Below are positions 51,001 through 54,000 of a stretch of DNA of 64,000 nucleotides, in pieces. The stretch spans positions 43,603-107,602 of the forward strand of contig CBDCZH010000018.1 in assembly GCA_965224485.1 (NCBI GenBank), given 5' to 3'. The position numbers are program-made. The stretch comes from Arcobacteraceae bacterium (GTDB lineage Bacteria > Campylobacterota > Campylobacteria > Campylobacterales > Arcobacteraceae). The number at the start of each line of letters is the position of its first letter. The first letter of the stretch is position 1.

Positions 51001-54000
51001 TATAAATTTTGAATTTGTAGTATAACTACTTATTAGTAGAACACTTTATACCTATTAACACAAATATTCAGTATTAATAGACATAATTTATGTACCTATA
51101 ATAATGAGAAATAGTGATATTTTGAATATTATGTTCTTTTTTCAATAATTTTCATTAAAATTGATGTCCATTTAAAGCTAAAATACTTGTTATTTGGACA
51201 AAAATGTCTACTAATTATTGAATTTTGTGTTAAAAGAACATAATGTTCTTTTTAAAACTAAAGTTTAAATTTACACTTTAATAATAGTATACAAGAAACG
51301 TGTCACAGTTTGTGTCACAAAAAAGAATAAAAGGATTAGATACTGAACTTTTATAATTATTAGTTTACATATTAAAATAGTTTGAAATAACTGGTGTTTG
51401 CTCTTGTAAACTTTCAGTTCCCGCTTTCTTACTTTTGTATTGACAAAAAGTAAGCAAAAACAACTACGTTTCGGAGGTCTTCGACTACCTAAAGTTTTTT
51501 TATTTTCTTGCTTAGCCCTAAAACTCGTTAAAATATGCTCCCAGCATATTTTTTCACACTCAGACAGTTATGGCTGGGTTACGCAATAAAATAAAAAAAC
51601 TTTAGCTCCTGCAAATGTAGCAATCAACGGAATAATATTTTGTCTACTTCGTAGATATAGTTTTAATACATATTTAGAAATTTATTTTTATATTGGGCAT
51701 TTTGATTACTTGCTCTACCCCTGCCTTTGAGGAATCTAGAGTTTGAGAGTTTATTTTGCCTGCAAGCAGGATTTTGTCACTGCGTTCTAGCATCGGTAAT
51801 AAGGAAGTAAAGGAAACTTGTTTTAGCATAAGGAAAACTTTACGCGTCATGTTTGGAACCCGGAGGGCTTCAGCAACCGGCAGTCGACTTTTTTGTTTCT
51901 TTTTGATCGATAAAAAAAGATGCCTGAGCATAGCGATACAATCCTGTAAGGGAAAAAAGCGCGAAGGTTCACCTTTGTAAGAGTTCTAAAAGTCAAAACT
52001 ATATTAGGTTTTATAATTGTTAGTTTATACTTTAAAATAGTTTGAAATAATTGGCTTTTGCTCTTGTTGTAAACTTTCAGTTCCCGCTTTCTTACTTTTA
52101 TGTGGCACATTTTTACTTTGTACTACTGGTGTATTTTAGCATTGCATTTAACAATATCCATACAATATTTTTGAAGAAGGGGAAGAAGAGTTTTTTTCTC
52201 AATTTAATTGAATATATGGGTATTGGAAATTTTACAAAATATTTTATGACTATACGATTAAAATACAATAAGGATATAGGACTTTCAAATGAAGAAATTC
52301 CAAATAGTGATTTCTTATAAAAGAGTGAATTCCAATAAATATGCTATAATTAGGAATACATTCCTAAAAAAGGACTAAAATATGGATTCTATTTTACTTG
52401 AAGACAATGCTCATTGGATAAATGATGAGAGTTATAATGATTTTGTATCTAGAGAAGCAATAGAAAAAGCTATGTCATATATAGATACAAAAGAGATAAT
52501 TGCTATTATTGGTGGTAGACGAGTGGGGAAAAGTACTTTGGCTAAGTTGATGATACGAAATTTACTTAAAACTGTAGATGCAAAAAATATTTTTTTTATC
52601 AATTTAGAAAAACTAAGTTTTATACCGTATAAAAACGACCCAAATTATTTAGATAAAATATACAATCAGTACCTAAAAATAGCAAATCCAGATTTAAATG
52701 AAAAGATATATTTTTTTATAGATGAAATTCAGATATTTGATAACTGGGAAGTATTTATAAAGTCAAAATATGAAAATAGTAATATTAAGTTTATTATTAC
52801 TGGCTCAAACTCATCATTACTTACTTCAAATTATGCTACTGTTTTAACAGGAAGAGTATTAAAGTTACGGCTATATAGTTTTAATTTTCGAGAATTTTTG
52901 ACTTATAAATCTATTGATTTTTCATCAAAATTAAAAATAGTACAGAATACTGTGAATATAAAACGGGCATTTGATGAGTATCTTATTTGGGGTGGATATT
53001 TCTCTGTTATTTCGACACAAGATATACAAGTAAAAAAAGAATTATTGAAAAATATTGCAGAAGATATTATTTTAAAAGATATTGTACCTAGGTATAAGAT
53101 TAAGAATTCTAGTGAGATACGAGATATGTTTTTTTATATTGTATCCAATGCAACTACACTTGTAAACTATTCTACATTGGCAAATAAACTAAATCTTGAT
53201 GCTAAAACTGTTAAAGAATATATCAATTATTTTGAAGATAATTTTTTGATAACTAGAATATCAAATTATCATCATAAACTGACACAACAAATTAGATCAA
53301 GTAAAAAGATATATTTAAACGATAATGGTTTTTTGAACTTAGGTATAAATCTAAGTAAAAACAACGGAACCTATTTAGAAAATTTGCTGTTTAATAGCTT
53401 GTACCAAAAAGATGAAAAACTTACATATTTAAAAGACACTTATGAAATTGATTTTTTTAGTGAAAATATTTTGTATCAAGTTTCTTACGATATTAGCGAT
53501 GACAAAACAAAAAAGAGAGAGTTTAATGCTTTTAAATATTTTCAGTTCAATGATACTATACAAAATAAACTCATAAGCTATGATACAAATGAGCAAATAG
53601 AAAATATAGAAGTGATAAGTTATGATAAATTTATTTTAGATGTGTAAAACACATGGTAAATATCACAGGTACAATCATAAAGTAATGATTGTATAATTTG
53701 ACAAATGTATCTATATGTTGTGGTATGTATCTACAATATACTAATATTAGATAAAATTATAGAACTTAAAAATGGTAATTTTACTAATGATAAAGCCTTA
53801 AAAGGTAGACATAAAAATAAATTTAGAAAAAGAGCAGATAATTATAGAATAGTATATTTAAGAGAAAATGATATTTTATTAATTACATTAATTAGAATAG
53901 TTCATAGAAAAGAGTTCTAAGAGTTTTATATTTATCAGTTTATACATTAAAATAGTTTGAAATAACTGGCTTTTGCTCTTGTAAACTTCCAGTTCCCGCT

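Follow-up and report, generated by a model that had tools for sequence, protein, structure and literature searches.

Structured intergenic repeats of bacteria include the enterobacterial REP/BIME and ERIC sequences, pneumococcal BOX, the Correia elements/NIMEs of Neisseria and bcr1 of Bacillus cereus. Among DNA sites with inverted symmetry, the integron attC site is an imperfect palindrome of 57-141 nt with R''/R' core boxes (RYYYAAC ... GTTRRRY), and dif/Xer modules consist of two inverted Xer-binding arms of ~8-11 bp around a 6-bp spacer. The HEARO and IS605-orfB motifs are held in Rfam. The general class of such intergenic repeats is treated, at least in part, in a review (PMC3184786), and PMC11208160 describes IS110-family elements, including IS621, that target genomic repeats such as REP. 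The repeat considered here, found in an Arcobacteraceae genome (Table 1), shares with REP/BIME, ERIC, BOX, Correia and bcr1 sequences many intergenic copies, the absence of a gene, a modular mosaic build and inverted-repeat symmetry, as well as stems kept by compensatory change and the role of landing site for IS110-family elements. However, it is much larger and more elaborate, with ~250 nt, eight helices and conserved loops in each arm, two diverged arms facing each other are its standard form, no RAYT/Y1 accompanies it, and its sequence bears no likeness to those classes (nothing in Rfam). We tentatively read it as a member of a new MITE-like family of non-autonomous intergenic repeats in Arcobacteraceae, whose fold would most likely act as RNA.

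Table 1. Features of the repeat copy and its neighbourhood, in coordinates of the window (the whole stretch of 64,000 nucleotides that was analysed). R1, covariance model of the repeat.
Feature	Position	Strand	Remarks
Diverged alpha-type copy	46000-46245	+	R1 53.2 bits, E 2.7e-11; far side of the Lamassu operon
Lamassu-type defence operon	46352-50986	-	PADLOC; neighbouring cargo
LmuB	46352-48151	-	PADLOC 699 bits
LmuC	48123-48608	-	PADLOC 216 bits
LmuA, split in two	48605-49540 and 49489-49776	-	PADLOC 318 and 86 bits
Two small ORFs	50236-50986	-	No known family; in the Lamassu cargo stretch
U module	51008-51348		~345-nt repeat joining T-alpha to the start of the divergent defence operon
TGTCACAGTTTGTGTCACA within U	51301-51320		
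Repeat copy	51339-52105		Contig C18:94941-95707; intergenic
T module	51349-51436	+	88-nt 5′ extension of alpha, overlapping its start; genus-specific
Promoter-like TTTATA-17-TAAAAT in T	51350-51378		Promoter scan
Additional hairpin in T	51390-51418		RNAalifold columns 7-35
Alpha arm	51417-51664	+	R1 275.4 bits over model positions 1-251
Conserved unpaired loop AAAACTCGTTAAAA	51516-51533	+	Vacant IS110 insertion site
Degenerate beta arm (modules A2, M, B)	51677-52007	-	Converging partner of alpha
R1 match in the beta arm	51809-51933		10.3 bits, E 0.12
Solo T copy	52009-52100	+	Breaks off inside the left arm of P2
Module X	52102-52155		Unrelated sequence
AAA_14/DUF4143 ATPase	52382-53647	+	Pfam; PADLOC candidate PDC-S01, 319 bits; cassette between both arrays
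Second array	53924-55105	+	T, alpha, beta (-), T, alpha, partial M/B
First alpha of second array	53992-54263		R1 186.8 bits; extra internal hairpin insert
Beta of second array	54429-54565	-	R1 34.7 bits
Second alpha of second array	54651-54902		R1 284.3 bits

The module names (T, alpha, beta, A2, M, B, U and X) were coined in the present analysis. If the repeat's window coordinates were taken as contig coordinates, they would fall at window positions 7737-8503, in what looks like coding sequence, and this placement was rejected. The alpha arm begins with a terminal hairpin, followed by the P2 hairpin, the P3 hairpin with an invariant G-U pair and a long stem, P4, that encloses P5 and P6; its 3′ part holds P7 and, at the end, the 3′ hairpin P8, for a whole fold of ~250 nt. 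The T module in front of it has 43 matches genome-wide, and among 32 T copies the -10-like box reads TAAAAT in 17 and TAAAGT in 11, with flanks that diverge immediately before TTATTAGTTTA. The beta arm of the window is scarcely detected by the covariance model; beta-homologous modules elsewhere score 70-101 bits on the minus strand, directly after an alpha (e.g. C3:2345-2596). Behind the solo T copy follow module X, which occurs a second time at C10:134644-134697, and then the ATPase gene, itself followed by a 71-aa ORF without family. The U module is present in six copies of 86-92% identity, each of which ends 20-165 nt before a different operon, and the cargos next to all six look like defence genes. 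The diverged copy beyond the Lamassu operon and the alpha arm at 51417 have the same orientation, with the operon between them.

An initial annotation of this DNA had reported a multi-copy family with 59 covariance matches. Every range that it gave for other copies was recovered by BLAST with the stretch, which yielded 123 pieces on 17 of the 24 contigs, and the independent model R1, built from 25 copies, produced 78 matches at E<=1e-3 that reduce to 57 non-overlapping places in 20 loci (29 at 195 bits or more and 33 at 100 bits or more), the remaining matches being antisense echoes of the long palindromic stem. The converging doublets described there are indeed the usual arrangement, with 16 converging, no tandem and five diverging pairs among neighbours at most 150 nt apart in this genome, and an opposite-strand 3′ neighbour, at a spacing of -12 to 70 nt, for 28 of the 52 copies in other genomes. 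The element is present in 35 of the 121 Arcobacteraceae genomes searched and in nine of the 22 genera, and plasmid and phage collections gave no match to it. In the sister genus g17 the pair is a repeated unit of ~515 bp with sharp inverted termini, and 12 aligned pairs of genome G020 have the termini TCTCTTGAAG...CTTCAAGAGA or, alternatively, ...CTTCATGAGA. Within one pair, the two arms have only ~67-72% of their sequence in common, and each nevertheless retains a fold of its own. The outer terminus varies by genus, being the T extension here, CTCTTGAAG in g17 and GAGCTCATACAAAG in genomes G001 and G002. Truncated or degenerate copies are common, the beta arm of the window among them. Copies are kept alike through gene conversion, as the stem variants are shuffled as mosaics among copies, including copies at one site in different species; for such same-site copies, a compensatory-change test of selection in place is confounded by this mosaic gene conversion. 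We call the element undescribed solely because searches of the literature on Arcobacter intergenic repetitive elements and on Arcobacteraceae toxin-antitoxin repeats and cassettes turned up no paper about one of this kind.

The conserved, strand-specific fold that had been proposed for the repeat is borne out by covariation both in this genome and outside it. RNAalifold, applied to 27 copies from this genome, predicts 57 pairs, and in 15 of these both partners have changed. For other genomes, an alignment of 79 distinct copies, fitted to the covariance model and thus favouring the structure, has 84.2% of its cells paired as compared to 45.4-51.6% when the partners are slid; both partners have changed in 50 of 53 pairs, and none of 500 shuffles reaches this level. 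G-U cells amount to 256 versus 91 A-C cells (other mismatch types, 16-112), and the window copy folds with a z-score of -5.9 on the plus strand and -3.0 on the minus strand. However, such a strand bias cannot separate RNA from DNA, because G-T wobble pairs are tolerated in folded single-strand DNA too. The short local hairpins P2, P3, P5 and P7 covary independently. Covariation is also seen in a 5′ hairpin and, in this genome, in a 3′ hairpin with T-rich sequence behind it (TCTAC/GTAGA versus TCTGC/GCAGA); the 3′ hairpin is gapped in 49-61 of the 79 rows of the other-genome alignment and is therefore not kept across genera. The most conserved parts across genera are the unpaired loops, with AACTCNNTAAAA and CTCAAACAG constant where the stems differ. 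The reported absence of the motif from Rfam also holds, as the best of six matches in Rfam 15 has an E value of 2.4 and all lie far below the gathering scores. By eye, the alignment shows no covariation for a pseudoknot of the conserved loop with the 3′ AACGG, and it also contains no ORF conserved between copies. A small coding ORF or type I toxin-antitoxin system was rejected, as the sole recurring ATG lies in the P5 hairpin with no Shine-Dalgarno before it, and both its frame and its stop change between copies through loop indels of 1-3 nt.

The MITE-like mobile doublet suggested by the initial annotation stands as far as its sharp inverted termini and the pair as repeated unit are concerned, but neither a transposase nor a target duplication was found to go with it. 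Like MITEs, the pair is short and non-coding with terminal inverted repeats (12 aligned G020 pairs), occupies unrelated loci, is patchy among genera and can be present or absent at one and the same site. Unlike them, it shows no shared direct repeat at the flanks of the 12 G020 pairs or of 32 T starts, and a parent IS sharing its ends was not found: in this genome no transposase lies between inverted copies and the IS110 ends are not shared with the repeat, and the 65 flanking ORFs of other genomes include one IS110 as the only transposase. Moreover, its inverted repeat is the whole arm, kept as a fold, as opposed to a transposase-binding end of ~20-40 bp. The Y1 family (PF01797) has no matches in this genome (91.8% complete), so the element does not qualify as a REP/RAYT system, and TnpB (PF07282) has none either; with no Rfam match in addition, IS200/IS605 ends or an omega-RNA were rejected. 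A reverse transcriptase as partner was likewise discarded, since the one found lies on contig C16, far from any copy.

Integron attC sites resemble the repeat in being strand-biased folded sites with conserved unpaired bases and no target duplication, placed precisely where small promoter-poor cassettes begin and end, cassettes that in many cases carry toxin-antitoxin or defence genes. However, attC copies run in one direction whereas copies of the repeat converge, and presence of the repeat does not track IntI. Genuine attC sites of this bacterial family, found in three integron arrays, are 66-72 nt long (TAACG...TTGTTA) and unrelated in sequence to the repeat. A profile built from 13 of them matched this genome once, at C19:26047-26113, and nowhere at the repeat; elsewhere, it found none in 14 alpha-bearing loci and 24 in four true arrays. 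Alpha, in turn, is absent from the surroundings (±1.5 kb) of 12 intact intI loci and from four arrays (66.5 kb). Thus attC was rejected, in agreement with the initial annotation. Dependence on IntI was also rejected on account of a weak co-occurrence, with 17 genomes holding both, 18 alpha only, 28 IntI only and 58 neither, counts in which related genomes are not independent. A difH/Xer site was searched for, allowing two mismatches at most in 16 arm positions, with the Arcobacter butzleri difH sequence (PMC2731167, Table 2); the 24 loose genome matches include two within 1.5 kb of a module and none in T or alpha, and this candidate was dismissed as well.

The link with defence genes that had been proposed is real in this genome, where most arrays touch toxin-antitoxin or defence genes, but it becomes looser in other genera, where about 16 of the 65 nearest genes are defence, restriction or mobile-like, 22 lack a Pfam match and ordinary genes make up the remainder. 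No recurring partner gene emerges, the 65 flanking ORFs of other genomes forming no cluster larger than two. The observation is narrower than the proposed seeding of defence islets: variable one-gene cassettes end exactly at the element termini. Genomes G020 and G055, with flanks 96% identical, differ by the replacement of a one-gene cassette, and their homology starts again right at the pair's first base; at a site between recQ and a GGDEF gene six species each carry a different single gene beside the pair. At locus L127, G097 has its cargo on the left side of the pair and G020 on the right, and the same locus provides a presence/absence difference that was missing from the earlier description: G020 has the whole pair plus a cassette, whereas in G086 and G055 just the termini are left, fused into a palindrome of 28 nt, and their hybrid loops are different. 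The relatives within this genome's own genus have flanks only 74-77% identical, too distant for an empty-site comparison.

These cassette swaps, the cargo that changes side and the fused termini are what one would expect if the sense strand of each arm folded into a single-strand DNA recombination site, recognised by an unlinked recombinase that cuts it at the terminal hairpin, a reading that we consider possible but rather unlikely. The termini would then be the precise points where cassettes, and the pair itself, enter or leave, the element would be an analogue of attC in function and not a relative, and one arm per strand would leave a usable site whichever strand is single. The strand-biased fold with conserved unpaired bases and the lack of a target duplication fit such a site, as do cargos lying between same-orientation copies in this genome (window 46000-46245/51417, and C13) and two truncated or deleted integron integrase genes that abut copies, including the only intI of this genome, 5′-truncated (profile positions 87-313) and directly after a T-alpha-M copy. 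However, no recombinase is linked to the element among the 65 flanking ORFs, Y1 and TnpB are missing from the genome, and the outer terminus changes from genus to genus. The left and right terminal hairpins do not have the same loop, a poor fit to a simple tyrosine-recombinase overlap, and solo palindromes, the candidate empty targets, are rare (one or two per genome, near control), so that abundant solo palindromes as pre-existing targets were rejected. Homologous allelic replacement after natural transformation would also yield cassette swaps. A distinctly unlikely elaboration takes the pair as a cassette-exchange platform beside the integrons of the family and independent of them, where toxin-antitoxin and defence cassettes would be inserted, swapped and removed at the exact termini; the fold would then be the first site resembling attC to come from a different lineage. 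Should the fold act as single-strand DNA, it would offer a second, integron-independent route to stockpile and shuffle defence cassettes.

Our tentatively preferred reading of the fold as RNA draws in part on hints of transcription. Among 32 anchored copies from other genera, 14 -10-like hexamers end at most 10 nt upstream of the terminus versus ~3 expected, a modest excess in which the position varies from 0 to -9. The upstream gene is co-directional in 29 of the 48 copies with an ORF upstream, and there the arm begins 5-380 nt past the gene stop, mostly less than 130 nt; it is divergent for the other 19 arms. The basic unit would be two converging arms, each with its ~250-nt, eight-helix fold and conserved loops on its own sense strand, and each would be transcribed inward, either from the -10-like box at the outer terminus or by read-through from the upstream gene, with the added T module as a putative promoter in the present genus; transcripts would be expected to start at CTCTTGAA or, in this genus, behind the TAAAAT of T. 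For both directions, the pair might thereby form a structured end of transcripts or an insulator where core genes meet acquired cassettes; copies may be lost through recombination between terminal hairpins, and an IS110 element uses them for its insertion. Of 13 pairs, two lie between convergent genes, nine between tandem and two between divergent ones, an orientation that equals the random intergenic expectation, so position gives no argument for a transcript-end role. Such a role leaves the conserved loops unexplained, and borders exactly at the termini are explained more directly by a DNA recombination site. If the fold does act as RNA, Campylobacterota would have a large and widespread class of structured RNA, well supported, that Rfam lacks and that is linked to the edges of islets with defence and toxin-antitoxin genes. 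It is quite improbable that each arm is instead an independent small-RNA gene with its own promoter, acting in trans through protein binding or regulation of toxin-antitoxin and defence cassettes and copied by duplication and gene conversion. The promoter-like boxes at the 5′ terminus, the covarying terminal hairpins, the conserved loops and the U-T-alpha arrangement, divergent from six defence operons with a common operator-like repeat, would suit such genes, but it would be unusual for a genome to have 50 or more copies of a single trans-acting RNA gene, the 3′ hairpin is not retained across genera, truncation or degeneration affects many copies, neither a conserved small ORF nor a target is evident, and no clear intrinsic terminator was found in the window, nor any between the arms of 14 pairs. 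Least probable of all is a purely selfish palindromic DNA repeat without single-strand function: gene conversion or hairpin-templated repair would keep its inverted repeats complementary, the apparent fold would follow from that, and the islet borders would simply be tolerated places of insertion. Random flank orientation, housekeeping-gene neighbours in other genera, evident mosaic gene conversion and many decayed copies agree with it; independent covariation of P2, P3, P5 and P7, loops better conserved than stems across genera, a strand-specific G-U excess and arms ~70% alike that each retain a fold speak against it. Under either the RNA or the DNA reading, the element is a precise marker of variable islets in Arcobacteraceae genomes.

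Either reading also explains the landing place of one IS110 element. The natural IS110 target put forward by the initial annotation is confirmed by four of the five full-length copies, which sit at the same AACT of the conserved loop ATATAACTCACTAAAA, a loop conserved across genera; the junctions (...ATATAACT, IS, AACTCACTAAAA) are identical in these four copies and AACT flanks both ends. The IS621/REP case is likewise that of an IS110-family element at one fixed repeat position, with a left end complementing both target halves; the target there is the REP hairpin, whereas here it is a conserved loop of a large fold. The IS110 element and the loop would provide a natural bridge-RNA/target pair to study, in which the expression of the putative bridge RNA and its pairing with the target are predicted from guide-like complementarity. 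The element is 1275 bp long, its protein matches NF033542 with 165 bits, and its long non-coding left end complements both halves of the target: it contains TAGTGAGTT, the complement of AACTCACTA, then AGTTATA, plus a same-sense TATAACT.

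The element at positions 51339-52105, counted along the window, which covers C18:43603-107602, is an intergenic stretch of a genome of 2.79 Mb (26-28% G+C, 24 contigs). It belongs to a real, dispersed family of strand-biased structured repeats that show turnover at their terminal hairpins. Borders set by the starts and ends of BLAST matches divide it into modules, usually ordered T-A-A2-M-B in this genome, where 43 T, 52 A, 26 A2, 20 M and 33 B matches remain once overlaps are filtered. The T/A border is artificial because it cuts through a hairpin, CTTACTTTT ... AAAAGTAAG, which covaries to TTCTTCTTTT ... 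AAAAGAAGAA in a second subtype, and the functional unit is a fold of about 250 nt, alpha, which begins in the last part of T. A further 54-nt module, X, lies 3′ of a solo T in the window and before a T on contig C10, resulting in a permuted order.

Coordinates of the repeat modules and associated features (window positions, or contigs of the source genome G000 unless another genome is named)
Feature	Position	Remark
Module T	51349-51436	BLAST match borders
Module A	51437-51676	BLAST match borders
Modules A2, M and B	51677-52007	BLAST match borders
Second T	52009-52100	BLAST match borders
Alpha	51417-51664
Module X	52102-52155; C10:134644-134697
Second array of repeat modules	53924-55105
Diverged copy of the repeat	46000-46245
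Module U	51008-51348; C5:66935-67280; C10:464289-464636; C13:152486-152834; C19:24469-24812; C15:266412-266650	86-92% identical
P2-loop insert, examples	C10:135262; C12:34298; C13:157371; C15:175062; G020 L089, L091, L092; G055 L117 ~7890
TTTTTTAAGGTGGCAACTGTCACC	C19:178626-178676; C4:3188-3240	upstream of T
LmuA gene	48605-49776 (-)
YhcG-type protein	44670-45986
Truncated intI	C19:179222-179905
Single attC	C19:26047-26113
Integron/array loci of other genomes	L119-L122
Compared position in G097, with intI	C1:2181057-2183032
Compared position in G020	C1:2099400-2102900	L128

Searched with a covariance model trained on 25 copies of alpha, the source genome gave 78 matches at E<=1e-3. Once the antisense echoes of a long palindromic stem are removed, 57 places remain, spread over 20 loci, and 29 score at least 195 bits; the multi-copy family of the initial annotation stands, at this count as compared to its 59 copies. 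RNAalifold predicted 57 pairs from 27 copies, 15 of them changed on both sides. The alignment from other genomes (91 matches, 79 distinct, in 58 loci), which was fitted to the covariance model and is biased towards the structure, had 84.2% of cells paired, as compared to 45-52% with the partners slid, a level reached by none of 500 shuffles, and 50 of its 53 pairs showed changes on both sides. G-U cells outnumber A-C cells in these copies (256 versus 91), in their mostly Watson-Crick pairs (149 versus 86) and in the source genome (23 versus 5). Between genera, the stems vary freely and the unpaired motifs, AACTCNNTAAAA and CTCAAACAG among them, are invariant. The covariation and the G-U excess bear out the conserved, strand-specific fold proposed earlier, and a search of Rfam with the repeat matched no family, as had also been stated.

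Neighbouring copies in the source genome, with gaps of at most 150 nt, are converging in 16 cases, diverging in five and tandem in none, in agreement with the converging A/B doublet previously described. The A2-M-B stretch is beta, a diverged copy of alpha on the opposite strand, which scores 70-101 bits with the covariance model elsewhere and is degenerate in the present element (10.3 bits). In other genomes, an opposite-strand copy lies 3′ of 28 of the 52 copies, at -12 to 70 nt, and in the sister genus g17 the repeated unit is a pair of about 515 bp, with tens of matches per genome and sharp inverted repeats (TCTCTTGAAG...CTTCAAGAGA) as its ends, at which no target duplication was seen. The two arms of one pair are only about 67-72% alike, and therefore each arm keeps its own fold.

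Turnover at the termini can be followed at three sites. G020 and G055, two related genomes, have 96% identity in the flanks of the first site; what lies between the stop codon of a response regulator and the pair has been replaced (a 179-aa ORF in G020, a 79-aa ORF in G055), and homology picks up again exactly with the pair's first base; the arm differs by two optional inserts, one of them a 34-nt insert in the loop of P2, a hairpin of alpha, also found in the source genome. At the recQ-GGDEF site, the single gene adjoining the pair differs in each of six species, and the GGDEF-side arm is kept, yet mosaic. At the third site, G020 shows the pair and a cassette of about 400 nt, G097 a cargo of 2.2 kb on the opposite side of the pair, and G086 and G055 only CTCTTGAAGACTTAGCAGTCTTCATGAG or a hybrid variant, that is, fused termini. 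Solo palindromes of this type are rare (1-2 per genome) and are therefore read as deletion footprints rather than empty targets. The P2-loop insert (33-34 nt, ACCTTTCAGGATTTAGTCAC...) occupies the identical point across genera, is more conserved than the remainder of the element and, at one shared site, is present in G055 and absent from G020 despite their 96% likeness there.

Among the explanations considered, a function at the RNA level is favoured, if tentatively; its carrier would be a MITE-like pair that can be read in the correct sense from either direction. Ranked second, as a possible reading and a serious rival, is a site for recombination of single-strand DNA. Alpha as the integron attC was rejected, as it occurs in none of 12 intI loci and none of four arrays, and the search for attC in 14 loci that carry alpha in other genomes returned none, so the initial annotation was right to set the element apart from attC. 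An integron integrase above the curated cut-off is found in 36 of 121 Arcobacteraceae genomes, and canonical attC arrays (66-72 nt) in G071, G013 and G066; the co-occurrence of alpha and IntI is weak (both in 17 genomes, alpha only in 18, IntI only in 28, neither in 58), and difH-like sites near the repeat show no enrichment. A trans-acting small RNA family is an unlikely third, and structure-less selfish DNA is slightly more doubtful still.

The source genome keeps a single attC and, as its only intI, a 5′-truncated gene (TIGR02249, 278 bits, profile positions 87-313), which directly follows a T-alpha-M copy on C19. Another destroyed integrase gene abutted by the repeat, the second of two cases, was seen in G020, which lacks an integron integrase: at the position of the G097 gene it has another pair, accompanied by some 350-400 nt, and of intI itself only the final ~35 nt are left.

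The proposal that the repeat is a natural IS110 target is confirmed by four insertions with identical junctions in one conserved loop and by guide-like complements. PF01548 has eight matches in the source genome, five of them full-length frames, of which four lie inside alpha or beta copies, in the best-conserved loop, with the common junctions ...ATATAACT/IS/AACTCACTAAAA. The 1275-bp element has AACT on either side, and its 268-nt left end contains three guide-like pieces: TAGTGAGTT, which is complementary to the right half of the target, AGTTATA four bases beyond it, and a same-sense TATAACT. In the IS621 report (PMC11208160), the two guides pair with different strands, the right one with the top and the left one with the bottom, core included, a logic that the left end fits here at the sequence level. 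A single 9-mer guide match would be expected about 0.2 times by chance (a rough estimate), and the weight therefore rests on the arrangement of the pieces. Directly upstream of two T copies, TTTTTTAAGGTGGCAACTGTCACC repeats the IS110 right end (..TTTTAAGGTGGC) plus the AACT core, and could represent either an isolated end of the IS or another target.

By the covariance model, 35 of 121 Arcobacteraceae genomes and nine of 22 genera carry the element, and by BLAST 13 of 41 relatives do, the source genome included; an exact-pattern scan returned carriers named as Arcobacter species, A. iocasae among them, and plasmid and phage records gave no match. The defence link put forward earlier holds for most arrays of the source genome, which touch toxin-antitoxin pairs (ParE, RelE, HigBA, Phd/YoeB, HipBA, MazEF, HepT/MNT) and defence-like genes (Lamassu, restriction enzymes, a ThsB-like TIR protein, AAA_15/21 ATPases, a NACHT protein), with core genes such as the S10 operon, rpsL-fusA, dxs and thyA on the far side. 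It is looser in other genera, where about 16 of the 65 nearest ORFs are defence-, restriction- or mobile-like, 22 have no Pfam match and the remainder are ordinary; no recurrent partner family was found among them (largest cluster, two). The orientation of upstream ORFs looks random (29 same, 19 opposite).

Module T, an addition specific to this genus, contributes a promoter-like TTTATA-17-TAAAAT (TAAAAT in 17 of 32 T copies, TAAAGT in 11) and an extra hairpin. Module U, about 345 nt, non-coding and confined to this genus, links T-alpha to the starts of six defence-like operons that are unrelated to one another (Lamassu, type II restriction enzyme, NACHT, Mrr-helicase, PDC-M12A-containing and one with a SngA-like gene); U carries TGTCACAGTTTGTGTCACA as a direct repeat and may be a shared promoter/operator placing all six under one control. 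The present element has a Lamassu operon on one side and a PDC-S01 ATPase on the other. The LmuA gene of this operon is split: two overlapping ORFs, 95 and 311 aa long, match one LmuA profile (positions 3-74 and 79-386), and the gene is therefore probably frameshifted. Also in the window, a YhcG-type PD-(D/E)XK protein (PADLOC candidate PDC-S02, 465 bits) adjoins a 78-aa fragment of a bSEFIR/TIR defence protein.
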